A DNA stretch of 64,000 nt from Christensenellales bacterium (lineage in GTDB: Bacteria; Bacillota; Clostridia; Christensenellales; UBA1242), in contig JBJFDL010000002.1 of assembly GCA_051889995.1 (NCBI GenBank), forward strand, positions 239,927 to 303,926, read 5' to 3'. This document shows positions 21,003-58,153 of the stretch, in pieces; positions within the stretch are counted from its first letter, which is position 1; the number at the start of each line of letters is the position of its first letter. Both the position numbers and the translations under genes were made by a program. Below the pieces are notes generated by a model. That model did not search any database. It worked only from the letters and a program-made list of their open reading frames with translations, and was not told the DNA's origin.

Positions 21003-21035
21003 TGGCTCCAAATAATTGGTTGTTTATTAATTTTT

Positions 21036-21485
21036 TTACATAAAACTAGGGTTTTCGACCTCATTCCAGATATCTTTTACGAGTTTTCCATTAATTTGTG
21101 CTTTTTGTCCAAATTCTTCTATATCTCTGTATATTTCATATTTATCTGTATTTATTCCCCAAAACTCTACACCAACATTTTCTACGCCCATTAAGCCATA
21201 TGTTATACCTTGATAAGTAAATTCCATTTCACCATAAAAATTATATCCAGCAATAAAGTCGTTAAAGTCTGGCATTAATGGTTTGCCTTCTTTATATAAC
21301 TCCCTTGCCTTATTCAGAGAGACTAAGTTTGGACACATTACTCTATCGGGAAATTCTTCATGTAATTTGCTATGATCCCAACCACAATTCAAGCATTTAT
21401 CACCGTTGCCAACAGAATCTACAAAAATCAAATTGCCACAAACTTGACACATAGATTTTATATTATTTTCATTTCTTTTATACAT
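21036..21485 (-). CDS. CPCC-type cysteine-rich protein, putative immunity protein
   Basis: CQVCG...CLNCGW...PNLVSLNKAR; C-terminal INGKLVKDIWNEV; directly downstream of a toxin-like ORF. Confidence 0.7.
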   Translation of the reverse strand: MYKRNENNIKSMCQVCGNLIFVDSVGNGDKCLNCGWDHSKLHEEFPDRVMCPNLVSLNKARELYKEGKPLMPDFNDFIAGYNFYGEMEFTYQGITYGLMGVENVGVEFWGINTDKYEIYRDIEEFGQKAQINGKLVKDIWNEVENPSFM

Positions 21486-21504
21486 AATTTCAACCTCCTA
21501 AGTC

Positions 21505-21801
21505 TTAACAATAATCAATATTTATTTCTCTATTTTCATCATAGTCTTGTCTTGGTTTTTTTTGATTCCAATCCCATGGATGATCATGTGGAAATTTATG
21601 TGGCTTTTTAGGATTATCATCTTTATGTTTCCAATCCCTATTCAAAACAGCTCTACCATCTGGACCATACCATCTTTGTTGTATAAGCTCACCCTGTTCA
21701 TCATATAAGTCAATTCTTGTGTTTGGATCGCCTTTTGCTTTTAAGTCTCCTATTTTACCGACTTTACTTTTAATTCCGCCGCTAGGCTTGCACATTCCCA
21801 T
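21505..21801 (-). CDS. stand-alone polymorphic toxin domain, Ntox24-like
   Basis: PNTRIDLY...QQRWYGPDG...D...H...PHKFPHDHPW pattern. Confidence 0.6.
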   Translation of the reverse strand: MGMCKPSGGIKSKVGKIGDLKAKGDPNTRIDLYDEQGELIQQRWYGPDGRAVLNRDWKHKDDNPKKPHKFPHDHPWDWNQKKPRQDYDENREINIDYC

Positions 21802-22628
21802 TATAACTCCTCCAGTGGTAAAAGTTCAAATGTTTTAGAAAAAGTTTTACCTCCATTTCCAAATAAAGTGAAAGTTAGTTCTTTTCCATTTAAGTTTTCA
21901 ACCTTTAGTGTTGTTTTAAATTTGCCTATGACATTATATTTGGTTTTGATTTTTTGTTTATCTAAATACCATTCTATTTTGTTTATATCATCACATAAAA
22001 TTTCTATTATTCCTTGATAGTTGTCGACATCTATTGATATTACACTAGGTGGATTAATCCAATATTTAGGTGGTGAAGATTGATAGCATTGAAAAAGTTT
22101 TTTCTTGTCTTCAAAAGATGTGAAATTCCAAACAACATCTTGATAGGGATTTTTAATAAACGGAATATTTCGTTCTTTTATTGTAGGATTTTTTAGTCCA
22201 AATTGAGATAGGTCTGCAACTATTTTCCATCTATAAATTTTATTTCTTTCTTCAAAATCCATTTGCGCTTTTATTAAATGAGAAGCATAATCTAATTCGC
22301 TACACTTGTTTACATTTATAAAATGCCTTTTAGCATCTTCTTCATAACCCAATCTTTGGGAATTTCTTATATGTTTCACTCCGTGACATTTACTACACAA
22401 TGCAATAATATCAAGTAATGTTTGAGTTTTTGTTTCTGTATTAAAATCCCAAACTTCGTGAGCATCTAAATCATCTGTTGCAAATCCACAAATTTGACAT
22501 CTATGATTTGCTCTTTCATAGCATGCATTTCTAACATTATCCCAGTCTTTTTTAGGCAATGTTTTACTAAAGTCATTATTCCAAGCACCTTTTGGTAGTA
22601 ATTCTATTGTAAGTTTTAAATCTTTCAT
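21801..22628 (-). CDS. HNH endonuclease-domain protein
   Basis: RCQICG...LDAHEVW...ALCSKCHGVKH. Confidence 0.8.
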   Translation of the reverse strand: MKDLKLTIELLPKGAWNNDFSKTLPKKDWDNVRNACYERANHRCQICGFATDDLDAHEVWDFNTETKTQTLLDIIALCSKCHGVKHIRNSQRLGYEEDAKRHFINVNKCSELDYASHLIKAQMDFEERNKIYRWKIVADLSQFGLKNPTIKERNIPFIKNPYQDVVWNFTSFEDKKKLFQCYQSSPPKYWINPPSVISIDVDNYQGIIEILCDDINKIEWYLDKQKIKTKYNVIGKFKTTLKVENLNGKELTFTLFGNGGKTFSKTFELLPLEEL

Positions 22629-22637
22629 TATTGCCTC

Positions 22638-23369
22638 CTAAATTTCAGGGTATAGTTCGCCTGCTAGATATTTTTTTATAAATTCAGCAATCCCCATCTT
22701 CTTCATTAGTTCTTCTTTATTAAAAGGGTCTATTGCTTTTATATTACCATTCATTTCTGGGAACGGAGTTCCGTAACAAATAATTGCAGAAGGTTCTATG
22801 ATTTCTAACATCTTATTGTATCCTAGCATAAAGCCATCTTTGTTATCTTCTCTTGTGTAAGTTGAAACTGCTACAACTGAGCCTTTTTCAATGCCATCAA
22901 AGCAAAACTCCAAACATGGGATTGAACCCCATGATAACGTAGGTATTACTTTCATTCCTTGTTTTTGCCAAAAAGCACCACACCATCTATTTTTAAATGT
23001 GCTATATATTTGAAGTGCTCTTGGCATATCCCAATACAAACTAAATTCTGGCGATAAAATTGCATAATATTGTGACAATTTTTCCATTGCCAATTCTGGT
23101 TTTTCATATACATTTTCAAACAACCAATCGTAAGTAAAAAAATGTATTGTTTTATGTTTGTTATCTTCATCTTGCAACTTTGTTTTTGTGTAACACCATA
23201 AATCAATTTTATCCAAATCTATTTCTTGTTTTTTTATAAGTGGCATACCATATTTCCCAACTGTTTTAAATTCGTTCCTAACTAATTTTAATTTTTTTAA
23301 TAATTTTTCATTGTCATATTCAGTTTTTTCTTGTGTTAAATTATTATCTACTTCATAATTTTCTTTCAT
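22638..23369 (-). CDS. DUF4417 domain protein
   Basis: IHFFTYDWLFE, LSPEFSLYWDMP, WQKQGMKVIPTLSW, CFDGIEKGSVVAVST. Confidence 0.88.
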   Translation of the reverse strand: MKENYEVDNNLTQEKTEYDNEKLLKKLKLVRNEFKTVGKYGMPLIKKQEIDLDKIDLWCYTKTKLQDEDNKHKTIHFFTYDWLFENVYEKPELAMEKLSQYYAILSPEFSLYWDMPRALQIYSTFKNRWCGAFWQKQGMKVIPTLSWGSIPCLEFCFDGIEKGSVVAVSTYTREDNKDGFMLGYNKMLEIIEPSAIICYGTPFPEMNGNIKAIDPFNKEELMKKMGIAEFIKKYLAGELYPEI

Positions 23370-23791: not shown

Positions 23792-24097
23792 TTATTTTAT
23801 CTTTTGTGTTATTTCGCCCGATTCTTCTTTTCTTAAAATTTCTTCGTTTTGTTTTTGAAAATTATTTTTGTAATACTCTATTGATAGTTTTATTACTTCT
23901 AAAGAATTATTTGCTAATTGCAATTCTTTTTTACAATCTTTACAAAACTTTTTATATTGGTTAAAAGACATCTCATTAGCTCCACCAATGTAATCTTCAT
24001 TCTCTTCCTGTAACGGATCAGATTCCCAGCCGCAGTAATTACAAATATAATAATCGCCTTCAATGTTTCCAATTTCGCAAACTTTACATTTTCTCAT
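23792..24097 (-). CDS. CPCC cysteine-rich protein, putative immunity protein
   Basis: GAAGGAG RBS. CKVC...ICNYCGWESDPLQ...GGANEMS. Confidence 0.8.
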   Translation of the reverse strand: MRKCKVCEIGNIEGDYYICNYCGWESDPLQEENEDYIGGANEMSFNQYKKFCKDCKKELQLANNSLEVIKLSIEYYKNNFQKQNEEILRKEESGEITQKIK

Positions 24098-24440: not shown

Positions 24441-24560
24441 GTATTATATCATACCTCCTTATAAAATGCAAAAGGTTGGAGAAACAAAACATTTCTTCAA
24501 CCTTTTAATCACATTTTATCATACGATTTTTAACAAATTCAACATTCACTGCCGTTTTTA
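24441..24560 (-). promoter_or_regulatory. conserved leader (two promoters, hairpin, RBS), copy 1
   Basis: Closely similar to 59526-59643. Confidence 0.75.
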
Positions 24561-24720
24561 TTACATATCAAAACCTTTTCTTGTTAATATATACATATAC
24601 ATATCGTGATAACCTGTGAGCTTTATATATTCTTTTAAAACACCTTATTGATTTAATTCACACTTTTCAATTACTTTCTTTGAGACATATTTGTTACAAC
24701 AATGTCTGCAAAGCGAAATA
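24561..24720 (-). pseudogene. 3' remnant of a RimJ/RimL GNAT acetyltransferase
   Basis: ...GVLKEYIKL..GYHDMYMYILTRKGFDM*; homologous to 39978-40140. Confidence 0.7.
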
Positions 24721-45292: not shown

Positions 45293-45592
45293 CTTGGTAA
45301 GACAAGGAAAGCACTACTTTGACCACTTTTAAAACTTAATATTTCTCCATTTTTGGAGCTATGCTGATGTAGCTCAGCAGGTAGAGCACTGCCTTGGTAA
45401 GGCTTAGTTGGCACTCTCAAAAAGTCACAAAAACAACTAAAAATATAGCACATGCTGTTATGGCTCAGTAGGTAGAGCACCACCTTGGTAAGACAAGGAA
45501 ATAGCATTTTTGAACAATTTTACAACTTAATATTTACTCCATTTTGGAGCTATGCTGATGTAGCTCAGCAGGTAGAGCACTGCCTTGGTAAG
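45293..45592 (+). repeat. array of CTTGGTAAG core + spacer + tRNA-Thr 5'-half units
   Basis: Cores start at 45293, 45393, 45484, 45584. tRNA 5' halves start at 45363, 45454, 45554. Confidence 0.9.
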
Positions 45593-45629
45593 GCAGAGGT
45601 CACGGGTTCAAGTCCCGTCATCAGCTCCA
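45554..45629 (+). tRNA. tRNA-Thr(GGT), intact
   Basis: GCTGATG/CATCAGC acceptor stem, CTGCC-TTGGTAA-GGCAG anticodon arm, GGTTCAAGTCC T-arm, encoded CCA. Confidence 0.96.
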
Positions 45630-45719
45630 ATCATTAACCTTTGAAAAACCTTTATATTTAGGGCAATTCAAAGGTTTTTTATTTTTCAAAATTTTGAGTA
45701 AATTTTTGCTCAAAAAATA

Positions 45720-45854
45720 TTTGCTGTCAATTTTTGGAGCAATTGCTGTCAAAAAAGAGACAAAAAAATAGACCGATAGTCAGAATTTGAACTATCGGTC
45801 TAAATTGTTCTAATACTATACTAAACTGATATATTTGCTGTCAATTGCTGTCAA
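45720..45854 (+). repeat. arm-type repeats (TTGCTGTCAA x4) and hairpin at the element left end
   Basis: Copies near 45720, 45743, 45834, 45845. Hairpin TAGACCGATAGT...ACTATCGGTCTA. Confidence 0.75.
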
Positions 45855-46663
45855 ACTATAATTTTTGAATTTATATCAATTTCAATCACATCTTCAATTA
45901 AAACATTTTTCTCTTCGGTATAAAATTCGTATTCTACTTGTTCACTATTTTCAAAGTCTATCCTGTTAAATATATTGTCTATTAATATGCTTAATCCATA
46001 TTCTACAATTTGTGTCGGATATAGTTTTAAAACGATTAAATATGGTTTGCTTAAATTATTAAGTTTATCTCCTAATGGTGAGTTTTCAATACAAAAATAC
46101 TGTATTTCGCCACCATAGTTGTCATAAAAATTAAATAAACCACTATCAATACTATAAGAAATATTTACATTTCCTAGGGTTACCCATAATTGATTTTCTC
46201 GCATATTGTCTTGTTTTAATAGCAGGTGATGTTCTTTTAAGAATTCAGATTCCTTTTCATCAATATAACCATCGTTTAACAAATTTTGTATTCTATCAAG
46301 AAGATTATATTTCGAAGATGTTTTTAATCCGTATTTACAAATTCTATCCTTTTCTTTATCGGTATATCTTGATGCGTGAAAACAAATAAGTGGTTTGTTT
46401 TCTTTTAATAAAATATTATGAAATTTCTTTTTTAAATCACAGAAAGCATCATAATATTCATTTTTTAAATCAAAGATCTCATAAATTCTATTTTCTCGTT
46501 TATATTGCTCTTTTAATTCATAAATCTCTTTCTCTTTTTTTCTATATTCTTCAATAATCTCATAATTATCTTTTATCAGCTTTTTTAAAGAATTTGTCCA
46601 CGTATCAAAACAATTAATAATAATTTCATCTTTATTCTTGTATTTTCTTACTTCTAAATCCAT
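45851..46663 (-). CDS. hypothetical protein, possible ADP-ribosyltransferase-like fold
   Basis: CFHASR......ICKYGLK and YGGE motifs; probable leaderless start (TATAAT 6 nt upstream of ATG 46663). Confidence 0.6.
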   Translation of the reverse strand: MDLEVRKYKNKDEIIINCFDTWTNSLKKLIKDNYEIIEEYRKKEKEIYELKEQYKRENRIYEIFDLKNEYYDAFCDLKKKFHNILLKENKPLICFHASRYTDKEKDRICKYGLKTSSKYNLLDRIQNLLNDGYIDEKESEFLKEHHLLLKQDNMRENQLWVTLGNVNISYSIDSGLFNFYDNYGGEIQYFCIENSPLGDKLNNLSKPYLIVLKLYPTQIVEYGLSILIDNIFNRIDFENSEQVEYEFYTEEKNVLIEDVIEIDINSKIIV

Positions 46664-46701
46664 ATAAATATTATAACACAAAATATGTCAATAGTATATA
46701 T

Positions 46702-48057
46702 CTACATCTCAAAATCTTTTTCTTTTCTCTTTTTCTTTCGTTCAAGTTCTCTAATCATTCTGTCTATTTCTTCGTCAGTTAGTTCAGGTTCTTCTGGATT
46801 TTCAATTTCTTTCTCTTTTTGTTGTTCTTGAATTCTAGTGTTTAGTCGGTCGGTTGCTTCTCTTACATAATCATTATTAACAGAGTTGTAGACCGTGATT
46901 GTTGTTTTAACATCTCGGTGTCCCAATAATTGTTGAATAACCTTGGGATTTTCGTTTAATTCAAATAGCATATTTGAAAATGTATGTCGTAGTCCGTGAA
47001 AGTGAATATTGAATTTATTAAGATTATTTCTTCGTTTAAATCTATCAAAGATTTTACGAGTTCCTGAATAAGTCCTATAACTACCATCATCGTTGGCAAA
47101 TACAAAAGATGTTGGAGATGTTAATATAGCTGTTACATCGGCATTGGTTTGCTGTCTTTCATTTTGTTTGTCTTTCCATTGTTTTAGGGTTTCTATAACT
47201 ATATCCGTTACAGGTATCTCTCTAACACTACAAGTTGTTTTCGTGTCACCAATAACTGTTACTCGGTCTTTAATATTACCTTGTTCGTCAAACTTTGGAA
47301 CTTGGGTTATTGCTCGTTCAACCCTTATTGTTTTGTTGTTAAAATCTATGTTTTTCCACTTTAATGCAAGAGCTTCGCCAATGCGAAGTCCTGCAAACAT
47401 AAGAGTAATACAAAGTGGTTTTATAAAGTTGGCTTCATCTTTATTTAATGCTTCTAAAAACTTATCTCTAATCTCTGGTGGCAAAGCTTTGTATTTCTCA
47501 TCGTTATCTTCTTCGTATATATTTCTTTTGCCTTTAACTTTTACTTTAAGAGTTGGATTAACGACAATCCATTTATTGTCTATTGCATACTCAAAAAATT
47601 GATTTAATAGGTGTTTGCATTTCTTAATAGTATCTGTGCTATAGCCTTGGTCAAGTAAAGTATTAACTAATTTTTGTATAGCATAGTTATCTATCTCATA
47701 AACTTTCATTTTGCCGATTAGTGGGGCAATATGCAGTTTAAAGTTTCTAATATTACCTTCAAAAGTTCGTGGACTTACAGAACTCTTTTTAAAGGTCATA
47801 AGATATTCAAACATCAAAGTTTCCAAGTTATTATTTTCAACTAATTCATAAGAATTGCTTTTTAATCTGCCACTAATTTCAGATAACTTTTTAACAACTT
47901 CTGCTTGTGTTTTTCCATATATTGTTTTGCGAATTATCTTTCCATTTTCATCATAGCCAAGTGTTAAAGCTCCGCCCCAACGACCATCACTTCTTTGAAA
48001 AATACTGCCTTCATTATTTGCTCTGCGAGTTTTACTTACTGCTTTCTTTTTAGCCAT
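46702..48057 (-). CDS. int: tyrosine recombinase / integrase
   Basis: RRANNEGSIFQRSDGRW arm-binding N-terminus; GLRIGEALAL, HGLRHTF, LLGH, VYN. Confidence 0.96.
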   Translation of the reverse strand: MAKKKAVSKTRRANNEGSIFQRSDGRWGGALTLGYDENGKIIRKTIYGKTQAEVVKKLSEISGRLKSNSYELVENNNLETLMFEYLMTFKKSSVSPRTFEGNIRNFKLHIAPLIGKMKVYEIDNYAIQKLVNTLLDQGYSTDTIKKCKHLLNQFFEYAIDNKWIVVNPTLKVKVKGKRNIYEEDNDEKYKALPPEIRDKFLEALNKDEANFIKPLCITLMFAGLRIGEALALKWKNIDFNNKTIRVERAITQVPKFDEQGNIKDRVTVIGDTKTTCSVREIPVTDIVIETLKQWKDKQNERQQTNADVTAILTSPTSFVFANDDGSYRTYSGTRKIFDRFKRRNNLNKFNIHFHGLRHTFSNMLFELNENPKVIQQLLGHRDVKTTITVYNSVNNDYVREATDRLNTRIQEQQKEKEIENPEEPELTDEEIDRMIRELERKKKRKEKDFEM

Positions 48058-48316
48058 TTTGCACCTCGCTTGTATTGTTGTTTAGAGTGAGCCATGTAAC
48101 AAAATTTAGCACACTCACAACTTGTCTTTTGCCAACTTTCGTTGTAGGGAAATTTTTACTTCTCATCAAATTTCTAACGTTATCTCTTCCAAGACCTGTG
48201 ATTTTAATAAGGTCTTCACAATCAAGAAAATCTTTATTGTATTTAGTTGTTAAGCGGTCAACTTCCGACTGTATTAAGTTGTTAATATTTAGTTGTTGGT
48301 TGTTATTAAAATTCAT
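48050..48316 (-). CDS. excisionase-like HTH DNA-binding protein
   Basis: FLDCEDLIKITGLGRDNVRNLM...FPTTKVGKR; overlaps the int start. Confidence 0.75.
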   Translation of the reverse strand: MNFNNNQQLNINNLIQSEVDRLTTKYNKDFLDCEDLIKITGLGRDNVRNLMRSKNFPTTKVGKRQVVSVLNFVTWLTLNNNTSEVQNG

Positions 48317-48629
48317 TTAGTTCTCCTCGTAAAATTAAATATTTTTTGTTCAGTTCTATAAAGGTATTTTCTATATCTAAATTTTTGAGAAAGAACGACT
48401 AATAAGTCCTAACTTCTTTCTGCTTTTCAATAAATCTCTTTTGTAAATCTTCTTGCTTTTCGCAGAAATAATCGGTGTTCGGGTATCCCGACAGCCGAAA
48501 GAATGAGTAGAAATCACTAAAATTTAAGCGAGTCTCTAAAAAGTCCTATTTTATAGGGCTTTTACACACATAAATCTTTTATTGTTTCTACCTTATGCTC
48601 TATACTAAATATCTACCAAAAACACTATT

Positions 48630-49829
48630 CTACATCTCAAAATCACTAGATAAATAGCCTTCATCTATGAGTGTTTTAATTCGCATTTCTTCAAGTTTTC
48701 TCATATAGTCTTGAAAGCACTTAATTGCTTCGTATTCACACTTTGAATTTAGATACATACAATGTTCAAGTTCTTTCCAAAGTTTGTCTTTTTGCATTCG
48801 TTTTTGGACTACATATTTTGCGTTAAGTTTTAATCTTTCAATCTCTTGACCTTTCAAACTTTTTGCACTTTCAATCACCAAATTTCCAAGTCTGCGATAC
48901 AAATCTTTTGTATACTTTTCACTCAAATTTTGTTGTGGTTTTGGGGCACCATTTCGCTTGCAATAACTATCTACAAGTTTTTGTTTTTCACTAACAAGGT
49001 CATCAAAATCATTTTTGTAAATGCTAATATCAACATTGTGGGAGATGATATAGTTTGAAATGTTATCAATATTTGGTTTGAGTTTTTGCATATTATCGCA
49101 GTCGTAAAATGTGTGTCCTTGCTCTGGAAATTGGTTTGCTAGGTCTAGTAGCATTTGCTTTAATTTAAGCCCAGAAACATCGCTTAATCGCTCTTTAACA
49201 CTCTTTGTTAGTCTTAACCTTATTTCTTTCTCACGAGCCTTAAAACCGGTTGCAGAGAGTTCAATATTGGCTTTCAAAAAATCCATTGCATTATTTGAAA
49301 TATAACCACGAGAAAAATGTTTTTCTTTATTCTTCATTCTTTGTGGTTCTTTCTCAAAAAACAACAAATGAATATGCCTATTATCTGTGTTCTCGTGCAG
49401 TCCAGCAAACCATTCAATGTTGTCGGGGTTTAGTCCAGCTCGTTTAAAATATTTAGGTAGTTCGCTTTTTACAAGGGAATATGCCTGCTCATAACAGCCA
49501 CACCATTTTTTACCAAAGTTCTCTTCAAAGGAAATAATGCCAGACCAAATAACAGATTTGGTTTCTCTTAAATTCTTTCTAAAATCTGCAATTTGTTCTT
49601 TGTTCATAAGTCCATTTTGGTTAAAGATTCCACTAGATTTTGTGCTGTTATTTGAATACTCCACAAAGTCCAATTTTTCTAAATCTTTAATACCTGTGGC
49701 GACATATTTTAGATAATCGTCATACTTGTTAGATGAGTAGTAATTTCGCTTGTCTTGATTGGTTTTATCTTTGTAGTTCGGCAAAAAGAACTCTTGCTTA
49801 TAAACCACATTTGGAACTTTATCTGACAT
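48630..49829 (-). CDS. MobL-type (MOBP-like) relaxase
   Basis: YLKY, WSGIISFE, WFAGLHENTDNRHIHLLFFE (HUH). Confidence 0.85.
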   Translation of the reverse strand: MSDKVPNVVYKQEFFLPNYKDKTNQDKRNYYSSNKYDDYLKYVATGIKDLEKLDFVEYSNNSTKSSGIFNQNGLMNKEQIADFRKNLRETKSVIWSGIISFEENFGKKWCGCYEQAYSLVKSELPKYFKRAGLNPDNIEWFAGLHENTDNRHIHLLFFEKEPQRMKNKEKHFSRGYISNNAMDFLKANIELSATGFKAREKEIRLRLTKSVKERLSDVSGLKLKQMLLDLANQFPEQGHTFYDCDNMQKLKPNIDNISNYIISHNVDISIYKNDFDDLVSEKQKLVDSYCKRNGAPKPQQNLSEKYTKDLYRRLGNLVIESAKSLKGQEIERLKLNAKYVVQKRMQKDKLWKELEHCMYLNSKCEYEAIKCFQDYMRKLEEMRIKTLIDEGYLSSDFEM

Positions 49830-50280
49830 CTATGAGCTCCCTTAAAATTCTATCTCGTTCGCCTTCAATGCCATTTTCATCTAGTGGGTCATACTTCCAA
49901 CCTTGCGAGTAAACATTTAGGTTTATTGGGCTTTGTTTGTTAAGTAGTTTAGTGATTAGGTTTAGCAGTGCTTGATTTACTCTCACATTTGCATTAGTGT
50001 CCACAAAGTCCATTTTTTGATTTGCAGATATGGTTGTAAGTTTGTCGTTTATTTCTTGCAAACTTTTTCTAATCTCGCTGAAATTTATGCTTTGGTTTAG
50101 TGCGTTATCTCCAAGCATTTTATCTGCACCTAGCAAAGCAAAATATTTCATAGCATCGTTTAGGCTATCAAACTTGTCCTTAAACCTTTCAAGTGCTCGC
50201 TTAAAAATCTCATGCTCATCTTGATTGTAAACTCTTATCATATATTGAGTTTTCAAATCTTTTGTTTTAATTCTAGCCAT
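49819..50280 (-). CDS. putative relaxosome accessory (MobC-like) protein
   Basis: Overlaps the relaxase start; possible ribbon-helix-helix N-terminus; GGAGG RBS. Confidence 0.55.
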   Translation of the reverse strand: MARIKTKDLKTQYMIRVYNQDEHEIFKRALERFKDKFDSLNDAMKYFALLGADKMLGDNALNQSINFSEIRKSLQEINDKLTTISANQKMDFVDTNANVRVNQALLNLITKLLNKQSPINLNVYSQGWKYDPLDENGIEGERDRILRELIDVR

Positions 50281-50289
50281 TTTAGCCTC

Positions 50290-50900
50290 CTAATTATTTT
50301 CTAGTCTTTCTACATCTCTTTCTATATCTAATTAAAGGGGCAATGATTTTTTTGTTTGCTTTTACATTCTAAAAATCCTCCTTTTTGTTAAATTTGCTTG
50401 CACGAGAAGAACTACCTAACTAACAATAGGCGATATTTCGTTTTATCTCTTTCTACTAAAACTCTAACAAGAAAAAACCAAATCAAACTTGCGACTTCTC
50501 AATCGAATTTCTTTCTTTATCAAATTTTCTTTCTTTATCTAACAAAACAAGAAAAATATATATTTTTATATTATTATATATACAAGAGTGAGCATAGGTG
50601 AACTTGCTTATTTTTTCTTTGTTAGATATAAAATAGTGTTTTTCAAGTTTATTGGTTAGGAATGCAAGGTTGGTATCATTTTTCTTTGTTAGAAATTATT
50701 ATCTTTCTACAAAAACAAAAATACAATGCGAGAACAAAACATTGTATTTTCCCTACACTATATAGCGATTTATTGCACTTTTTGCACCAGATTTTTTGCA
50801 TTTTTGCTTGTTTTTGAGTAGTGTTAGCACAACAAAACAAAAAAATTTATCAAAAAATGCCCGTAAATACAGGCATTCGCAATTTTCGACAAAAAAAGTT
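50290..50900. other. repeat-rich intergenic region, candidate oriT/ori
   Basis: TCTAACAA.AAAA motifs in both orientations, TCTTTCTAC repeats, hairpin AAATACAATG...CATTGTATTT; lies upstream of the mob genes. Confidence 0.45.
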
Positions 50901-50941
50901 TTGTAAAAATGGTCAAAAAGTAGTTGTCTAGGTTGTAGTTT

Positions 50942-51847
50942 TCACCCCAAAATATTCTTTCTCACATGGTGCAAACCTTTATTTGTCTTAAAGTCCCTTA
51001 TTCGCTTTGGTGCAATGGATAGTTTAATCCATCTAAAACCCTTATTGCAAGGCAAACATTCATCTAATTTGTATAGCACAAAGTAGCACTTGATTTTTTT
51101 AAACTTTGGTTTTGTATGCAAGTAGTCATCAATTTTATAATATCTGTGTTTTGATGAGTGTTCAAAGATTATTCCTTGATATTTGTCTTGCAAGTTCTTT
51201 GAAAACACTTTTTCTGTTATCTCTATTGAAAACCCTTCAATGTTGTTTTTTGAATACACTTCTTTGTGTGGTAGGGTAAAAGTAAAATCTTTGATATTTC
51301 TAACTTTGTATTTCACTTTGCTTTCGTCATAGTCAGTTCTTGCAATAACATACCATTCATTATTCTTTTGTGCGAGATATATAACTTGCAAATATGAATT
51401 CTTTACAAGCACATTGCTTTCATATTGTTTGATTGTTATGTATGAATTTTTTGTTTGTTTTCCTTTTATTGTTTTGTTTGTCTGCCTTTCAACATATCCG
51501 CCATCAATCAAAAACTTAACATCATTTTGTATTGTTCGTTCTGTCACTCCAAACTTGATTGCAAGATTTTCTACTGCAATTTTTTTACCTTCCAAATACT
51601 TAAAGTAGTTCCACAATTTCTCTCGGCGAATTGATTTCCTGAAAACTTTTCTAACGTCATCTTTTTCATATCCACCATCATATTTACCATCAATTTCATA
51701 TTCGTCATAGTGAGTAGAGTCGTAATAAAGTTTAACACCACGCTTGCCTTTGATGTATGTTCTTTCAAGTTTTTTAATCTTTCTATCTTTACCTTTTGGA
51801 TTGATATATTCCAGTCCAGAGAAACATTTTGTTTTTAATATACTCAT
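50942..51847 (-). CDS. winged-HTH domain protein (possible replication/regulatory protein)
   Basis: ENLAIKFGVTERTIQNDVKFLIDGGYVER. Confidence 0.65.
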   Translation of the reverse strand: MSILKTKCFSGLEYINPKGKDRKIKKLERTYIKGKRGVKLYYDSTHYDEYEIDGKYDGGYEKDDVRKVFRKSIRREKLWNYFKYLEGKKIAVENLAIKFGVTERTIQNDVKFLIDGGYVERQTNKTIKGKQTKNSYITIKQYESNVLVKNSYLQVIYLAQKNNEWYVIARTDYDESKVKYKVRNIKDFTFTLPHKEVYSKNNIEGFSIEITEKVFSKNLQDKYQGIIFEHSSKHRYYKIDDYLHTKPKFKKIKCYFVLYKLDECLPCNKGFRWIKLSIAPKRIRDFKTNKGLHHVRKNILG

Positions 51848-51962
51848 AATTAAATTATATCATAAAACTGTTCGTTTTGCACTTGTAAATTAGAAAATTC
51901 GTTTTTGTAGCTAAATAAAAGTAGTGCTAGCGTTTAGCACTACTTTTAATAAAATATTGTGA

Positions 51963-54530
51963 TTATAACTCTACAATATTATTGCCGTCATAACAATATA
52001 ATTTTCCATTTCCTTTTGATTGGCTAGGATAATCATTTGTATATGAAATTGCTGTTTGAATAAAGTATATTTTATTATTCACTGCAATCAATCCATCTGC
52101 ACAGTTTTCACTTAACTTTGTTGAAGTGCCTGTTGATATGTTTAACTTATAAAAACCTTTTGTTGATGATTTTGTTGAAGAATAATATAAATAGCCATTA
52201 CAGTAAACCATATTGTTTATATCGACATTTTGAGCAAGCACTTGAGAATCGCTTGTTGATAAATTATAAGCATAAAGTTTGTTATCATCAATATTTCCAT
52301 AATACAAAATACTATTATTTTGTGTTATAACTTTTGCTCTCAAATTTAAGTTTTCAACTTGACTTGTTGATAAATCATATCTATAAGCATATTTGTTGCC
52401 CAATGAAGGATTTATAGTAAAGTATAGGAAATTATCAGCTTTTTCAAAGCTTGCTACCCATAGGTTTTTGTCATTGTAAATTGTTTCAACATTACTGCCA
52501 TCTAAATCCATTCTCACAATATCATTGTTATATGCTGAACCAACTTTAATGTAATATATTTTATCATTATCAAATATCAAATTATCACAACGAGATTTTG
52601 AAATCTTTGTTGTTTCATTTGTTTGTAAGTCCATTCTCCATAAAGCATAATTTACTGAAATATATGTGCTGTAATACATATAACCATTATAAAAATAAAC
52701 ATTTGATACACTATCAGCCAAAACTTTATATCTTGCTTTTGTTGTCAAATTATATTTATACAAACATCCATTATCAAGTGGATTTGTATAGTAAATTTCA
52801 CCATTATATTCAGCAAGTTTTGCATAACCTGTTGGAGTAATTGTTTCTTCTGGTAATTCAAAATTAGCCATAATATCAGTTTCAGTGTTGGTATTTAAGT
52901 TATAAGAATAAATGTGTTTATCATTTAACTTATAATAATATAAGTAGTTGCCACTTGATGCCAATGATGAGAAACCATTATCTTCTGCTGAAATAATTTT
53001 GTATCCCGGCAAACTGTTATCACTATCTCTTAATACACTAATTCTATATATTCCATCACCAAATAATTCACTTGTTATTTTGTCTTTGTTGATATAGTAA
53101 ATATAACTTCCAATTTTAGTTAAATATTTTCCATTATCAGTTGTAAGTTTTATGCAATCGCCACTCGAAATAACATATTTTCTAATTGCACTTGCAACAG
53201 GTAATCCCAATTCAGTTTTTGTTGAGTTAAAATAAATAATTCCGTTATCAATTAAAATATCACTTACTTTTTCATCATATAACAAAGTGCCTGTTTCTTG
53301 ATTGTTTGAGTTTACTGATATAGAGTAAAGTTTTCTGCCATCACTAACGTTTGAATAATAAATATTGTTATCGTAATATGTCAAATATTCAGCTTTATCT
53401 TGAACTAAACGAATTGCATCTTCACTGCCATCAAGTTTAATTTTATAAATACCATTTTGGTCTGTATTTAAAACTAAATTATTTATAGCATAGTAAAGAT
53501 ATGTTCCATCACAAGCCAAGTATTCACCATTAACATCTAACAATACACTTGCTGTAGTTCCATTAAAACTCTTGATAACTTTTGAGAATAAACTTGAACT
53601 ATAGTAATAAACTTGATTTCCATTTATAGTAAAATATTCAGCTTTATCGTTATTAACTTTTTTGACATTTGTTCCATCATAAACATAAAGTTTGTTATTG
53701 TCCAAATTGTTTTGGAAATATAGTTTGTTATTAAACACAACAGAATATAACAATTCTTCTGTAGAAGTTATTTTTAATGTGGCTGTATCTTCATAAGTGT
53801 TGTAATTTGCATTTGTAATAACTAACTTGACAGTATATGTTCCAACTTCTGATACTCCATCAACTTCAACATCATTGTATGTAACTTTAACAGTTGAATT
53901 TGCTGGTATATTTCCTACACATTCTAATGAATGTTTTTGAGTATCATATTCATAATTTCTACTTTCAAAAGTTATTCCAGCCATATCTGCTTTGTTAATT
54001 GTCCAATTAAGATTTGCAAGAGTTGGCTCGTTGTGATTTATCGTATCATAATTAAACTTAACACTGGCAGTATAATTTCCTGCATTTGTCTTTGCATTAT
54101 TTTGATATTGTTTTACTGTTACACCTTGTGGAAGTCCTAAAACTTCAACAGATTGTTCACTTCCATTATAAACGAACTCACTTTCGTAATTCCAATGAAC
54201 AGTTGACATATCATAGTTTAACTTATTGATAGTTAGTTTTGCAGTTAATTCAAGTGTTTTATATCCTTCAAGTGTTAAAGTTGCTTTTGCATTATAAACT
54301 CCAGCATTTGTTCCTTTATTGTTTTCATAAACAACATTTACACCTTGTGGCAATTCGCCATCCAAAACAATTTCGTGTTCCTGTCCATCATAATCAATTG
54401 TTTGATTTGCAAAAGTTATGTTCTCAAATGTTTTTAGGTTATCATTGTCACCACAGGCCGATAATATAAAAGCAAATGGCAAAACAAATACAATCAATGC
54501 TAAAACTTTTAATATTTTCATTCTTTTCAT
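51963..54530 (-). CDS. DUF5050 beta-propeller lipoprotein with MBG-like repeats
   Basis: Lipobox LSAC; YDGQEH...TNAGVY..LTINK repeats; many IYYxN...LY..L.DG blades. Confidence 0.85.
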   Translation of the reverse strand: MKRMKILKVLALIVFVLPFAFILSACGDNDNLKTFENITFANQTIDYDGQEHEIVLDGELPQGVNVVYENNKGTNAGVYNAKATLTLEGYKTLELTAKLTINKLNYDMSTVHWNYESEFVYNGSEQSVEVLGLPQGVTVKQYQNNAKTNAGNYTASVKFNYDTINHNEPTLANLNWTINKADMAGITFESRNYEYDTQKHSLECVGNIPANSTVKVTYNDVEVDGVSEVGTYTVKLVITNANYNTYEDTATLKITSTEELLYSVVFNNKLYFQNNLDNNKLYVYDGTNVKKVNNDKAEYFTINGNQVYYYSSSLFSKVIKSFNGTTASVLLDVNGEYLACDGTYLYYAINNLVLNTDQNGIYKIKLDGSEDAIRLVQDKAEYLTYYDNNIYYSNVSDGRKLYSISVNSNNQETGTLLYDEKVSDILIDNGIIYFNSTKTELGLPVASAIRKYVISSGDCIKLTTDNGKYLTKIGSYIYYINKDKITSELFGDGIYRISVLRDSDNSLPGYKIISAEDNGFSSLASSGNYLYYYKLNDKHIYSYNLNTNTETDIMANFELPEETITPTGYAKLAEYNGEIYYTNPLDNGCLYKYNLTTKARYKVLADSVSNVYFYNGYMYYSTYISVNYALWRMDLQTNETTKISKSRCDNLIFDNDKIYYIKVGSAYNNDIVRMDLDGSNVETIYNDKNLWVASFEKADNFLYFTINPSLGNKYAYRYDLSTSQVENLNLRAKVITQNNSILYYGNIDDNKLYAYNLSTSDSQVLAQNVDINNMVYCNGYLYYSSTKSSTKGFYKLNISTGTSTKLSENCADGLIAVNNKIYFIQTAISYTNDYPSQSKGNGKLYCYDGNNIVEL

Positions 54531-54546
54531 ATAAATCTCCTAATTA

Positions 54547-55398
54547 TTAAATATCTTCTGTTAGTTCTGGATTGCTATAACTTTTCATTAAAGCAAAAGG
54601 ATATGCAATTGCACTTAATGGCATACAAATCACTAATGCAAGCAAGACAGCTGCAAGTCCTAATGCGAAACCAAGAATCCAAAACAAGATTTTCATTCCA
54701 ATAAGCCAAGCAAAACCACCTAAGTCAAATGAGAATATAAGTCCCGGAAATTTTACAAATCCCCACGAAGCTATTGATATAAATGTATCTCCGATAAAGT
54801 TATTCTTTAAGAACATACAAGAAGCAAATGTATATGTAAGTATTGGCAAAATTATAACAAGTGCTATCATTCCGCCATCAACTTTTTGTGTGGCTGCATA
54901 TATTATGCCGGATATCAAAATAATAGCCGCAATAATTGAAGAGTATATGTAAGATTTCTTTCTTTGAGATATACCATAATCAATCGCATCTTTCTTTTGC
55001 TTTGCTTTAATCTTTTTGTCACAATCAGTGCAAATATAATGCGTTGTTGACGGACTTCTTCCATGATGTCGTGTTTGTGTGACAATTTCTTCACTTTCGT
55101 AAATTGGTCGTTTACAATTTTCACAAATAGTTAAAACAGGTTTGCCTTGTTCAACAACAATTTTTTCTTGCACTTCAGTTATAACTTCTGGCTTTGGTTT
55201 TTTATCTGGTCCACAAATTATTTCATCGGTTGTCACTTCAAATATACTTGCCATTTCACTTATTGTATCAATTGACGGTTCAACATCACCTTTTTCCCAT
55301 CTTGATACTGCTTGAGATGTTACGTGCAACAAATCAGCAAGTTCTTTTTGTGTTAGCCCTTTTTGCATTCTTAATGCTTTTATGTTTTTAGATATCAT
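54547..55398 (-). CDS. XRE-family HTH protein with a zinc-finger-like segment and C-terminal TMs
   Basis: LTQKELADLLHVTSQAVSRWEKG; CENC...CTDC; hydrophobic C-terminus. Confidence 0.85.
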   Translation of the reverse strand: MISKNIKALRMQKGLTQKELADLLHVTSQAVSRWEKGDVEPSIDTISEMASIFEVTTDEIICGPDKKPKPEVITEVQEKIVVEQGKPVLTICENCKRPIYESEEIVTQTRHHGRSPSTTHYICTDCDKKIKAKQKKDAIDYGISQRKKSYIYSSIIAAIILISGIIYAATQKVDGGMIALVIILPILTYTFASCMFLKNNFIGDTFISIASWGFVKFPGLIFSFDLGGFAWLIGMKILFWILGFALGLAAVLLALVICMPLSAIAYPFALMKSYSNPELTEDI

Positions 55399-55541
55399 TT
55401 TACCCCTCCTTTCAACAATTCAATTCTATCACAAAATCAACAGTTTGTTTCAAAAATCGGCTCAACAGTTTGTTGTATTCTTATAAATTTTGTTTCATTT
55501 TACTATATATATTTCTTAGTATAGCATAAATATCAAATATC

Positions 55542-56011
55542 TCATACTGTTTGTAAAACATTTATTATTTCTTTCTTTTTCCTTTTTGCATATTCAAGTG
55601 CTTTTTTTGCACCGGAATATTCGACAGTTTCGTCAACACAAAAAACACAATAATCACTATGGTCAATAATTTCACAATTTCGGTAATAAATTCTTGAATA
55701 CCAATAGTCAAAATTTAAGTCTAAATATGTAATTTCTTCATAATCTTCATCTTTTAACCATTTTGGTCTTTTAGATAATCTTTGATGTCGTGGGTCTGAC
55801 AAACAAAATATCCTATAAATTTCAAGGTGTTTGGTTTTTAACTCAGTTATTATTGAGTGGCATAAATCATCAAATTCGCCAAATCCACCAAAATAAAAAT
55901 ACTTAACATTTTCTTGTGTTATAAGCATTTCAAAAGTAGATTTTAAATAGTTTTCAAGTTCTTTTGTAATTTTAATTTTGCTATGTCCAAAAACAGAACA
56001 TGATTTTTCAT
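55542..56011 (-). CDS. DUF1273/SLOG-like protein (start ambiguous; ATG 56011 is out of frame in an A5 run)
   Basis: CSVFGH, FYFGGFGEFD, IYYRNCEIIDHSD, SGAKKALEYA. Confidence 0.65.
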
Positions 56012-56025
56012 AAATTGACGATGTA

Positions 56026-56134
56026 TTCACAACTCTAATTATAGATAGAATTTTAATAATTGTCAACACATTCACAACTTGTGTATACATTCACAACATT
56101 ATTTTTGACTAATTGCTAAAATTATCGTGAATAC
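56026..56134. promoter_or_regulatory. consensus promoter with repeated TTCACAAC operators
   Basis: Minus strand TTGACA-17-TATAAT (56066-56038); three ATTCACAAC copies and an inverted TCGTGAAT. Confidence 0.65.
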
Positions 56135-56163
56135 ATTAACAAGATTTAGGAGAAAATTAAGTT

Positions 56164-56397
56164 ATGAAATTACACGAAGCAGTTGGTAAAAGAATTTTAG
56201 AATATTGCAATGAAAGAGATATAACACCAAACAAACTTTGCACAATGTCAGGCATTATTCAATCGACAGTAAATAGTATATTTTCTGGAAGAAGTCAAAA
56301 TCCAAAACTCGCAACAATCCAATATTTATGTGATGGGTTAGGCATAACTTTAAAAGACTTCTTTGATAGTCCATTATTTGAAAATTTAGATGATTAA
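56164..56397 (+). CDS. XRE/Cro-like repressor
   Basis: ITPNKLCTMSGIIQSTVNSI...NPKLATIQYLCDGLGITLKDFF. Confidence 0.88.
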   Translation: MKLHEAVGKRILEYCNERDITPNKLCTMSGIIQSTVNSIFSGRSQNPKLATIQYLCDGLGITLKDFFDSPLFENLDD

Positions 56398-56450
56398 CCA
56401 CAAAAAAATAGCATTAGACTTAGTTCCTAGTGCTATTTTTGTTTTATTCT

Positions 56451-57071
56451 TTAATTTTCCAGCAAATCTTCGATATTACAACCCAAAACTCTTGCTAGTT
56501 TGTAAAGGGTTTCAACTTGTGCTTTGTTTATATCGTTTCTTCGTTGTTCATACATTTGAATAGAGCGAAGTTCAACTTCTGCAAGGCTTGCAAGTTTGCT
56601 TTGAGATAAGCCTCGTGCTTGTCTTATTTTTTTTAGGTTGGTGATTTCAGACTTTTTGAAATATGTGTTTGCCACATCAAAAAACTTTGTTACATCTGCT
56701 TCGTGCAAGGTTGGATATAGTCTTAAAACTTCTTCAATAGGCAATGAATTATTTATCTTATAGAAAGAATATCCTTTTTTATGTTGAAATTGAGCCAAAA
56801 CCCAGCCAGCCCAATAGTATTTATCTTTGTTTATATCTTCTTTGTTTGGAATGGATTTTTTGCCATTATAAATCTCATTCAAATAATCTAATGCAGAGCA
56901 GGTCAGATATTTTGGATTTCCTTTTTCAATTTGTTTTGCAACATTGGAATTGACAAATGTATTCCAAAAAATTGTAGGATTTATTCCAATATCTACAGCA
57001 TGCTCAAACATTACACCCAAATTTTCGGATAAATTTGGTAAATATAAATTGTTATATGATTGAATCGCCAT
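56451..57071 (-). CDS. DUF3791-like + XRE HTH protein, putative antitoxin/regulator
   Basis: YWAGW, LYPTLHEAD, LSQSKLA...IQMYEQRRNDINKA. Confidence 0.8.
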   Translation of the reverse strand: MAIQSYNNLYLPNLSENLGVMFEHAVDIGINPTIFWNTFVNSNVAKQIEKGNPKYLTCSALDYLNEIYNGKKSIPNKEDINKDKYYWAGWVLAQFQHKKGYSFYKINNSLPIEEVLRLYPTLHEADVTKFFDVANTYFKKSEITNLKKIRQARGLSQSKLASLAEVELRSIQMYEQRRNDINKAQVETLYKLARVLGCNIEDLLEN

Positions 57072-57735
57072 CTTTTAACCCCTTTCTCATAATATCCACT
57101 ACAAATATATCATTGGTTAGTGTCGCAGATTTTCTAGTGCCTTTCAAATAATCTTCTCGTGCCTTTTCATCTCTCGCTTTTCTTTTTGTAAAGTATTCCA
57201 ATCTGTCTGCAGTTTCAAAACCTTCAAAATGAAGTTTACTAAATGCAAGTTCGCTAACTATTACAACTTGCTTTCCAAGTTGACCTAATTCCATAGCTTG
57301 ACTTAATTTTCTAACTGGAATTGTGTTGTTTACAAAATCTCTTGCAAAACTAAAATATGAGTCGTCTGCTCTATAACCTATAACTATATCGTAATTATTT
57401 ACATCAATGTAAAAGTTTTTGAGCAAATACTCTTTCGCTTGAATAGATATATCATTACTCAAATCAAAAGTTCTAAATTTTAAAAGTATTGCAATCCAGT
57501 TCAGTATTGAATATCTTTTATCTGTTAAATCTAGAATTTTAAGCCCAGACAAATCAATAGAATACTTATTTGCAAATCCATTATTTTCGTTATTACTGCA
57601 AGACCACTCTTTTGCCAGTTCCAAACTTTCTGTGCAATAAAATCCAAAACCATAATCGTTTTCAGCCTTTCCACCGTGGTAATATGGCTTTTCAATAATA
57701 TCTTTTGAACCATGATAAATAACTAACTTTGACAT
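57052..57735 (-). CDS. DUF3990 family protein (ART-like, putative toxin)
   Basis: IYHGS, NDYGFGFYCT, AKEW, YDIVIGYRADD. Confidence 0.88.
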   Translation of the reverse strand: MSKLVIYHGSKDIIEKPYYHGGKAENDYGFGFYCTESLELAKEWSCSNNENNGFANKYSIDLSGLKILDLTDKRYSILNWIAILLKFRTFDLSNDISIQAKEYLLKNFYIDVNNYDIVIGYRADDSYFSFARDFVNNTIPVRKLSQAMELGQLGKQVVIVSELAFSKLHFEGFETADRLEYFTKRKARDEKAREDYLKGTRKSATLTNDIFVVDIMRKGLKDGDSII

Positions 57736-57759
57736 ACACTTCTCCTTTTAATCTATGCT

Positions 57760-57874
57760 ATTATATCATTATAATGATACATTGTCAACCAATTATGACA
57801 TTTTTATATCATTACAATGATATATCTATATTTCAACTAATTACGATTATTAAATTTATATCATTACAATGATA
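57760..57874 (-). promoter_or_regulatory. promoter with three TATCATTAYAATGATA palindromic operators
   Basis: Copies at 57764, 57807, 57859. The first sits in the spacer of the minus-strand TTGACA-17-TATAAT promoter, overlapping the -10. Confidence 0.75.
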
Positions 57875-57976
57875 CATTATGAATTATTGTCTTTAATAAT
57901 CATATTAAAACCACTTTATCAAACTTACAAAGTTTTAGGCAGTTCAAGAGCAACCAGGTCTAGTAAAAACATCACA

Positions 57977-58112: not shown

Positions 58113-58153
58113 ATAAAACCAACACTAAAATTTATCAATAAAAAACTTAATAT

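Follow-up and report, generated by a model that had tools for sequence, protein, structure and literature searches.

What is the function of a non-coding block that recurs in front of unrelated toxin-like genes? The question is raised by a stretch of 64,000 nucleotides from the genome of a Christensenellales bacterium (GenBank assembly GCA_051889995.1, contig JBJFDL010000002.1, positions 239,927 to 303,926; the whole of this stretch is termed the window), in which two direct repeats of 138 nt that are 84% identical in pairwise alignment (leader copies A and B) stand before the genes for two toxin-like proteins (toxins A and B), with leaders and genes alike on the minus strand. It is proposed here that this leader of ~135 nt is the regulatory region of the terminal cargo operon of small mobilisable elements (integrase, HTH_17, MobL) that lie beside tRNA-Thr in the ~1-Mb genomes of uncultured gut Clostridia, and that it holds an upstream promoter (P1), a hairpin and, before toxin genes, a downstream promoter (P2) whose transcripts would provide for the immunity protein only. 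The probability of this reading as a whole is put at about 0.5. That the block is a promoter region for cargo is very probable; that P2 fires as proposed is given slightly less than even odds.

Only these two copies were recovered when the window's own genome (1,059,861 bases; G+C content 27.7%) was searched (E values of 2.6e-69 for the self-match and 1.0e-37), and the next match had an E value of 0.037. The initial annotation of this DNA had described a non-coding block recurring before an unrelated toxin-like gene and composed of P1, a hairpin, P2, and a ribosome-binding site within the P2 spacer, and every one of these motifs was recovered in both copies (Table 1). Homologous leaders are widespread. 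Matches at E ≤ 1e-3 were obtained in 107 of 401 sampled genomes of the family (G000 included), representing 29 of 58 genera, and an exact pattern comprising the hairpin arms and TTGCAT identified 60 loci in contigs drawn from one genome per species, nearly all of them assemblies of uncultured Clostridia or Christensenella-like organisms. A total of 64 distinct leaders were aligned, 31 of which were obtained with a BLAST query that contains the P2 box and 33 with the pattern that fixes the hairpin arms and TTGCAT, such that both search routes bias the sample for what the counts over the 64 leaders show. Genes in loci other than those of the window (designated by L numbers) are simple open reading frame (ORF) calls; four mis-called starts were corrected (L040 and L092 to class A, the family of toxin A; L102 and L103 to B-like, that of toxin B), and L120 and L128 were placed with the B-like genes. 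The leader together with toxin A had no blastn match in phage or plasmid collections, and Rfam yielded no leader or riboswitch family, only tRNA and two sub-threshold chance matches. The initial annotation had envisaged a homologue search with a catalogue of downstream genes, and had held that leaders found mostly before genes unrelated to toxins would contradict it; the search revealed a conserved non-coding unit before unrelated first genes, with 51 of the 64 leaders preceding toxin-like genes.

Promoter-like boxes, a hairpin, and toxin-like first genes

Across the 64 leaders the sequence of P1 drifts while its promoter geometry is kept. The nearly invariant columns of the alignment are a TGnCA box, the -35 hexamer, the TG extension, and positions T-12, A-11, and T-7 of the -10 hexamer, and the spacers drift. 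Among 54 unique contexts, the T of TG is present in 49 and the G in 42, TAnAAT is kept, and position 3 of the hexamer is free (A in 20, C in 4, G in 14, and T in 16). P1 thus has the attributes of a sigma-A promoter, namely hexamers within the expected spacing of 16-18 nt, 9-10 of 12 matches, a TG, and key positions kept in homologues. In 47 of the 54 contexts, 5-8 nt separate the end of the P1 -10 from the first hairpin A, such that a P1 transcript would begin at the foot of the hairpin. The assignment of P1 and P2 as promoters in the initial annotation is borne out insofar as both vary across homologues as sigma-A promoters do. About 8 nt upstream of the P1 -35, just past the integrase stop codon, lies the nearly invariant TG(G/T)CA box (24550-24554 in copy A), which could be a regulator or UP-like site.

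The hairpin that follows P1 is shaped like a bidirectional terminator, with an A-run before it and a T-run after it, and is the sole such feature between integrase and cargo. The stem-loop is followed by TTTTGCATTTT, and TTTTGCATT stands directly after the hairpin in both window copies. All 50 unique hairpin variants fold (-9.9 to -22.1 kcal/mol), with loops and inner stems that differ in length, and the outer 11 pairs hardly vary, which explains why 94.1% of cells pair and yet covariation is not significant. As a whole, leader copy A attains a fold (-32 kcal/mol, z = -4.07) that 0 of 200 shuffles reach; for copy B an advantage over shuffles is not clear (z = -1.76, 11 of 200). No antiterminator or sensing element was found in the leader, as the predicted P1 start at the hairpin foot leaves no upstream RNA and Rfam holds no matching leader or riboswitch. 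Regulated attenuation, which the initial annotation had suggested, therefore finds no support, the P1 RNA having nothing upstream of the hairpin from which an antiterminator could form. Since leaders before DUF4417 genes have no other promoter, P1 transcripts must pass the hairpin, at least partly.

The P2 box sets apart leaders before toxin-like genes. The motif TRTGnTAnAAT, 17 nt after TTGCAT, is present in 44 of the 64 leaders, all of which precede toxin-like first genes (16 class A, 27 B-like, and 1 of a third class, c7); none of the 11 leaders that head DUF4417, methyltransferase-like, or other genes has it. Of the 20 leaders that lack the box, 7 precede c7 genes, 4 DUF4417, 5 methyltransferase-like genes, and 2 genes of another class, and 2 have no ORF called. 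The five methyltransferase-like first genes had no Pfam match, their S-adenosylmethionine motif being a reading by eye. The 7 c7 leaders outside the 44 have a longer spacer and were not tallied for a box of their own; in the five c7 start contexts that were read (L067, L068, L072, L087, and L116), the Shine-Dalgarno (SD) sequence GGAGG is followed by TG, with TGTTATAAT lying over the ATG in full in L067, L087, and L116, and with L068 and L072 read only as far as GGAGGTG. Among 34 unique contexts, the P2 spacer is 17 nt in 31, TG is present in 33, and the base after TG is free. The distance from the P2 hexamer to the ATG varies from -2 to +3 and is 2 nt in copy A (ATG at 24440) and 0 nt in copy B. 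P2 thus combines a -35 at fixed spacing with an extended -10 kept in homologues, as expected of a sigma-A promoter, the hexamer itself being demanded by the search expression. Genome-wide, TGnTAnAAT occurs within -16 to +3 at 4 of 634 SD-bearing starts (crude gene calls), two of which are the leaders and one secY. The geometry agrees with the claim of the initial annotation that a P2 transcript would start within the toxin ORF, given that a start ~7 nt past the -10 would fall inside it. The annotation's further idea of a plug-in platform dedicated to toxins holds for the P2 box, which precedes toxin-like genes only, and fails for the leader, which also heads DUF4417-HNH and methyltransferase-like cargo. 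Judged by the genes it precedes, the leader is a general cargo leader, and the P2 box is its only toxin-specific part. Leaderless translation from P2 was considered as a separate candidate and ruled out, the A of the ATG lying just 1-3 nt after the -10.

The first genes behind the P2 box resemble RNase toxins. Class A (~110 aa) is a small unnamed family of 45 clusters without a Pfam, NCBIfam, or convincing PHROG family. A model of toxin A built from 39 sequences had a predicted local distance difference test (pLDDT) value of 92.4, and its only significant matches in the Protein Data Bank were the CdiA-CT toxin 8ey4_A (E 9.1e-06, target TM-score 0.72) and colicin D tRNase chains (6.3e-04 to 1.5e-03); H25 is invariant in the 39 sequences. 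By fold likeness, toxin A models as a colicin-D/CdiA-CT-like BECR RNase. The complex of toxin A with the neighboring CPCC protein was predicted with a score of 0.79 as compared to 0.01 for the best control, with runs agreeing in at least 95% of contacts and a partner pLDDT of at least 90. Of the solved complexes used for calibration, 116 of 157 scored this high, as did 2 of 215 mismatched pairs; these counts apply only roughly to toxin A and the CPCC protein, for which custom alignments were used. The predicted interface involves toxin A residues 20-25 and 84-87, including the conserved H21 and H25, and the model supports binding of toxin A by the CPCC protein. The B-like family has a common Cys/His N-domain joined to C-termini that are DUF6883-like (8.9e-05 in L106) or barnase-type (PF00545, 1.1e-10 in L120); the DUF6883 match of toxin B itself (E 0.0019) is below the Pfam cut-off. 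With a common N-part, swapped C-termini, and partners that differ (c9, c14, and c26), this family is organized as polymorphic toxins are. No delivery or secretion domain was detected in Pfam, NCBIfam, and PHROGs scans of the proteins of 100-205 aa. The initial view that the first genes are toxin-like thus agrees with their RNase-toxin-like folds and families and with the predicted binding of toxin A to its neighbor. Likewise, the notion that the downstream immunity gene can be expressed alone is compatible with SD sites carried by both partner genes: GAAGGAG of the CPCC gene overlaps the end of the toxin A gene at its stop codon, and the DUF4926-like partner of toxin B, whose ATG overlaps the toxin stop (ATGA), has GGAGGG 8 nt upstream. 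In four loci (L037, L054, L078, and L102) the toxin gene is deleted or frameshifted and the immunity gene is an orphan behind a leader with a whole P2.

Codons at the start of class A genes vary little. In codons 2-14 (24399-24437 in toxin A), synonymous differences affect 16% of same-residue pairs versus 41% in later conserved codons; codons 3, 4, 6, and 8 have zero synonymous differences and codons 5 and 7 about 13-14%. This suppression of synonymous change indicates that some nucleotide-level function overlaps the first ~25 nt of the class A ORF. The region is where P2 transcripts would begin, and it holds AAAGGT, which is complementary to the 3′ arm of the hairpin.

Taken together, the following mechanism is proposed. 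P1 would act as a sigma-A promoter with an extended -10 and a start at the first bases of the hairpin. The hairpin and its T-run would end integrase transcripts, insulating the cargo, and the hairpin would also cap P1 transcripts as a 5′-terminal stem-loop and possibly terminate them in part. A strong SD site comes third in the leader. Before genes for cytoplasmic RNase toxins (class A, B-like, and c7), an extended -10 placed between the SD and the ATG would, together with TTGCAT, form P2. Transcripts from P2, at the usual 6-9 nt from the -10, would start at +5 to +8 of the toxin ORF without its SD and ATG and could give immunity protein from that gene's own SD and no toxin, with toxin made only from P1 or read-through transcripts that pass the hairpin. 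It is from sequence that we infer the firing of P1 and P2, their start positions, the degree of termination at the hairpin, and the resulting immunity excess. A bolder version must be considered tentative, at appreciably less than even odds, namely that this is a portable toxin-muzzling leader, shared by at least three unrelated toxin families, in which rare P1 transcripts make toxin and constitutive P2 transcripts immunity only, and which would keep cassettes and orphan immunity genes in place after decay of the integrase.

Weighing alternative explanations of the leader

Several observations weigh against this proposal. In single sequences, promoter-like sites are no commoner than in shuffles (4 versus 5.2 ± 2.1 for copy A and 6 versus 4.9 ± 2.0 for copy B), and the claim that they exceed chance therefore rests on the repeat and on conservation in other genomes. 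A terminator scan detected no site at either copy, a result of little weight in that the scan was also blind at the evident terminator of the leucine-rich-repeat (LRR) gene described below. Covariation in the hairpin does not exceed its control: the score is matched or surpassed in 28 of 500 shuffles, two-sided substitutions are seen at only 2 of 14 pairs, and at one pair 19 of the 64 leaders have an A.C mismatch; the structure is plausible, and covariation gives no proof of it. TTGCAT is kept in nearly all leaders, with or without a P2 -10, indicating that it is not conserved for P2. Common descent rather than selection may account for the occurrence of the P2 box before toxin genes, with the DUF4417 leaders as deletion derivatives, and the origin of all 64 leaders in a box-containing query or a pattern fixing the hairpin arms and TTGCAT bears on the same point. 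Finally, a search of sequencing runs gave only small shares in RNA libraries, all as assembled contigs, and four runs aligned to the leaders revealed neither transcript starts nor ends. One metatranscriptome contig (331 nt) from a relative extends over the P1 region and the hairpin into a B-like gene; DNA carry-over is indistinguishable here, and, if RNA, the contig would represent read-through from upstream.

The same leader could be explained by P1 alone driving the operon, with the hairpin as integrase terminator and/or 5′ stabiliser and the P2 box as a spacer or relic. As a spacer, the A+T-rich box would stretch the distance from SD to ATG to 11-13 nt and thereby damp toxin translation. 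That distance, long in classes A and B, is of ordinary length in L119 and the c7 leaders, at 9 and 7 nt, with box and ATG overlapping there, which shows that the box can serve as a normal spacer. As a relic, the box would be a partial duplication of the P1 -10 (CGTATGATATAAT versus GGTATGATATAAT) carried along with toxin cassettes, consistent with the near identity of the P1 and P2 boxes in sequence. The chance-level promoter matches in single sequences and the DUF4417 leaders, which work without a box, fit either version. However, substitutions within the box follow promoter logic (TG, T-12, A-11, and T-7 do not change, and position 3 of the hexamer varies freely, as does the base next to TG). 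In 31 of 34 contexts the box stands a constant 17 nt from TTGCAT, and its distance to the ATG varies. A similar box is carried in a different sequence context by the c7 leaders L067, L087, and L116, and few gene starts in the genome have one (4 of 634). A single promoter is considered less probable than the proposed reading, of which it is the main rival.

Two further explanations take the hairpin as the primary feature. The inverted repeat could be folded single-stranded DNA or a protein site, such as an origin of transfer (oriT) for the MobL relaxase or a recombination site, to which the promoter boxes are secondary. The near invariance of the outer 11-bp arms and TTGCAT, alongside inner stems and loops of varied length, exceeds what a terminator needs, and the repeat adjoins the integrase gene; part of this invariance is, however, imposed by the search pattern itself. 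The attachment site is instead the tRNA-Thr region, given the two tRNA-Thr copies with ~200-nt repeats in the window and a tRNA-Thr past the cargo in 6 of 20 other loci. Moreover, the intact element in the window has a relaxase and no leader, the leader in L059 (the sole other relaxase locus seen) is ~1.7 kb downstream of the relaxase, beyond xis and int, and many loci have a leader with intact P1 geometry and no integrase or relaxase seen within ~10 kb. The oriT idea, for which further small inverted repeats found upstream of the relaxase operon are not decisive, is improbable overall. Alternatively, P1, hairpin, and T-run could be a gene for a small RNA of ~40 nt that acts on the element or the toxin mRNA. 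The promoter does end 5-8 nt before a terminator-shaped hairpin, and the arm sequence ACCUUU is complementary to AAAGGU in toxin A codons 3-4, which belong to the stretch with few synonymous differences. Yet such an RNA has no Rfam match, unrelated genes that lack the complementary stretch carry the same hairpin, covariation is not significant, and the passage of P1 transcripts through the hairpin that the DUF4417 leaders require conflicts with it, making this explanation very improbable.

Element remnants and cargo in the window

The leader begins with the stop codon of the tyrosine integrase gene carried by mobilisable elements that integrate at tRNA-Thr. Integrase 3′ sequence (..KDFEM*) reaches the leader in 20 of 41 loci, with the ORF whole in L038, L041, and L048 (408-465 aa), an HTH_17 gene before the integrase in L058 and L059, and a MobL relaxase also in L059; the other loci have integrase stubs of 28 to ~430 nt or more with scattered breakpoints, and in L022 an internal integrase segment is fused to P1. 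That integrase 3′ ends abut the leader points to integrase, leader, cargo as the ancestral order. Judged by these remnants, the integrase decays by deletion and the leader and cargo stay. The left edge of the leader was considered as the core of an attachment site, given the shared ..DFEM* and ..GFDM* ends, and was ruled out by the scatter of stub breakpoints (28 to >430 nt) and by the tRNA-Thr repeats that bound the intact element. Nor is the arrangement that of an integron-like platform: the integrase is co-directional, no repeated site bounds the cassettes, and the integrase stub ends are scattered.

A single intact element was identified in the window, and it has the components of an integrative mobilisable element (integrase, relaxase, and flanking repeats at a tRNA). 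The integrase (46702-48057; Phage_integrase 5.5e-25) is accompanied by an HTH_17 gene (48050-48316), a MobL relaxase (48630-49829; 1.8e-24), an 855-aa DUF5050/MBG protein, and DUF3990 and HTH genes, and the two bounding tRNA-Thr(GGT) copies share ~200 nt of repeated flank. No leader copy lies within this element (45554-58228). After its integrase come a short promoter-like stretch, distinct from the leader, and an ORF of 276 aa (45851-46681) without a Pfam, NCBIfam, or PHROGs family. On the minus strand at 46660-46705, TGTTATAAT stands right after the integrase stop, followed by 6 nt and the ATG of the 276-aa ORF with no SD, making the mRNA of this ORF a candidate for leaderless translation. 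The placement of the toxin modules on an integrative mobilisable element in the initial annotation must be revised accordingly: neither copy is inside the intact element, and both are remnants. Leader B, the toxin B gene, and the partner gene lie directly beside the second tRNA copy, at an equivalent relative location, and, from this position, are the tail of an older element. Past the cargo, 6 of 20 long loci have a convergent tRNA-Thr(GGT), at 1.3-6.9 kb from the leader, as does window copy B, and one more long locus has a tRNA-Arg. The tRNA repeats and the tRNA past the cargo indicate that the attachment site is the tRNA and that the cargo headed by the leader lies between this site and the integrase.

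The DNA upstream of the two copies differs. That beside copy A (24561-24683) comprises the last ~50 codons of a GNAT gene and is 87% identical to the end of a GNAT pseudogene (39978-40103), and that beside copy B also matches the end of the intact integrase of the window (46703-46743). Read-through from an integrase, which the initial annotation had named as one source of toxin transcripts, is therefore not available to copy A, since upstream of copy A is the GNAT fragment after the LRR gene and only copy B has an integrase stub. The GNAT pseudogene itself (39978-40529) has a frame broken after ~90 aa and an Acetyltransf_3 match at 40257-40529. The LRR gene (24916-28050) encodes a BspA-type leucine-rich-repeat surface protein of 1044 aa with many internal DNA repeats, and an A+T-rich terminator-shaped hairpin lies after it near 24725-24775. 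A large serine recombinase gene (Resolvase, Recombinase, and Zn_ribbon_recom; 60282-61766) immediately precedes the integrase stub of copy B and may be the trace of another insertion.

Behind toxin A and its partner, module A (20098-23369) contains DUF4417, HNH-like, and c7 genes and another three CPCC proteins (including ones of 149 and 178 aa), and by its gene content has the appearance of stacked toxin and immunity-like genes. In class A loci, a degenerate P1-like remnant is found ahead of DUF4417, suggesting that a toxin cassette with a fresh leader was stacked ahead of an older leader. In two other loci, an AbiEi-like/AbiEii toxin-antitoxin pair lies downstream of the leader-headed module (L061, 12688-14213; L053, 11458-12893).

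Table 1. Features of the window, with positions counted from its first nucleotide.
Feature	Position	Strand	Remarks
Leader copy A	24442..24579	-	Repeat family; aligned with 63 homologues
P1, copy A	24513..24542	-	TTGAAT-18-TAAAAT, TG extension; geometry kept across leaders
Hairpin, copy A	24470..24506	-	Arms AAAAGGTTGAAGAAA..TTTCTCCAACCTTTT, then GCATTTTA
P2, copy A	24443..24472	-	TT(T)GCAT-17/18-TATAAT, TG extension; -10 at 24448-24443
SD AAGGAGG, copy A	24454-24460	-	Inside P2 spacer
GNAT acetyltransferase gene, 3′ fragment (..LTRKGFDM*)	24561..24710	-	Abuts leader copy A
Toxin A, 112 aa	24102..24440	-	Colicin-D/CdiA-CT-like (BECR) predicted fold, no Pfam family
CPCC zinc-ribbon protein, predicted immunity partner of toxin A	23792..24097	-	Cys_rich_CPCC 4.3e-08
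DUF4417 protein	22638-23369	-	Pfam DUF4417 9.7e-50; backbone cargo
HNH endonuclease-like protein	21801-22628	-	phrog_940 'nuclease' 8.5e-55, phrog_5200 HNH 2.6e-32; backbone cargo (21801..23369)
c7 toxin-like protein	21505-21801	-	phrog_18811 'toxin' C-terminus 4e-07
CPCC protein beside c7	21036-21485	-	CPCC 8.6e-08; second toxin-like pair (21036..21801)
Leader copy B	59525..59662	-	Alignment and genome search
P1, copy B	59596..59625	-	TTGAAT-18-TATAAT, TG
Hairpin, copy B	59553..59589	-	Sequence and fold
P2, copy B	59526..59555	-	TTGCAT-17-TATAAT, TG; -10 (59526-59531) abuts ATG at 59525
SD AAGGAGG, copy B	59537-59543	-	Inside P2 spacer
Tyrosine-integrase 3′ stub (..RRRERDFEM*)	59645..59900	-	~250 nt, 83% match to integrase 3′ ends; abuts copy B
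Toxin B, 194 aa	58941..59525	-	Cys/His N-domain (HxxCxC) and DUF6883/BECR-Tox3-like C-domain
Tandem DUF4926-like protein, predicted immunity partner of toxin B	58459..58944	-	Weak DUF4926 match
Intact mobilisable element	45554..58228		12.6 kb between two tRNA-Thr(GGT); region 45554-58360
tRNA-Thr(GGT) copy 1	45554-45629		Bounds intact element
tRNA-Thr(GGT) copy 2	58154..58228	+	Attachment-site side of decayed element carrying leader B

Comparison with known systems

Modules in which the toxin gene comes first must make an excess of antidote, and few solutions are known, such as P2 of hicAB and the internal promoters of mqsRA. If the proposal is true, a 135-nt block would be a compact and transferable solution for unrelated RNase toxins in dozens of uncultured gut species. 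In addition, a previously undescribed family of tRNA-Thr mobilisable elements is defined in ~1-Mb Clostridia genomes, and a free-standing toxin family, colicin-D-like by its predicted fold, is described with a CPCC zinc-ribbon partner, through which the CPCC domain gains a testable role as an immunity protein.

In Escherichia coli hicAB, as summarized in a review (PMC11594946) of work by Turnbull and Gerdes (2017), P1 directs the synthesis of both proteins and P2 that of the antitoxin only. The leader system resembles that account of hicAB in that the toxin comes first, an upstream promoter would serve both proteins, and a downstream promoter would yield an antitoxin-only mRNA, as judged here from DNA sequence. 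It differs in that its toxins are colicin-D-like, DUF6883-like, or barnase-like RNases rather than HicA, its partners lack a recognisable DNA-binding domain, neither an operator nor autoregulation is apparent, the -10 of P2 lies between SD and ATG, a hairpin stands between the two promoters, and one leader is common to unrelated toxins on a mobile element. In mqsRA, antitoxin-specific promoters are located inside the toxin gene, according to Fraikin et al. (2019; PMC6918082). The leader system shares with mqsRA a toxin-first order and, as proposed here, the uncoupling of antitoxin transcription from that of the toxin; the mqsRA promoters are within the toxin coding sequence, whereas the box of the leader overlaps the toxin translation start. 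No match to the HicA/HicB or MqsR/MqsA families was found, the partners here being CPCC zinc-ribbon and DUF4926-like proteins. Since the toxins differ and no DNA-binding antitoxin or operator was seen, the leader system is not a member of hicAB or mqsRA. A plasmid-borne hicAB has an internal intrinsic terminator that is reported to set the toxin to antitoxin ratio (PMC11878559). The two cases have in common a hairpin with a U-tract in a toxin-first operon on a mobile element, but the terminator of plasmid hicAB lies between toxin and antitoxin and raises toxin, while the hairpin of the leader is upstream of the toxin gene and would lower toxin.

Comparison can also be made to polymorphic BECR toxins (colicin D/ImmD, CdiA-CT/CdiI, and MuF-DUF6883/DUF4926). 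A preprint presents DUF6883 proteins as BECR RNases that are frequently fused to MuF and DUF4926 as their likely immunity proteins (bioRxiv 10.64898/2026.08.28.747851). Toxin A resembles such toxins in its predicted fold, and the B-like proteins do so in their DUF6883-like or barnase-type C-termini, common N-domain, and downstream DUF4926-like partner; orphan immunity genes are a further likeness. Unlike polymorphic BECR toxins, the proteins behind the leader are 100-200 aa in length and have no delivery or secretion domain that could be found, which suggests that they would act inside the producing cell, as toxin-antitoxin or abortive-infection modules do.

The leaders of aprE and ermC are 5′-terminal stem-loops that stabilise mRNA in Gram-positive bacteria. 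The hairpin of the leader is like these stabilisers in lying within a few nucleotides of the predicted 5′ end and in being followed by a strong SD; unlike them, it has a T-run and an upstream A-run, as a bidirectional terminator has.

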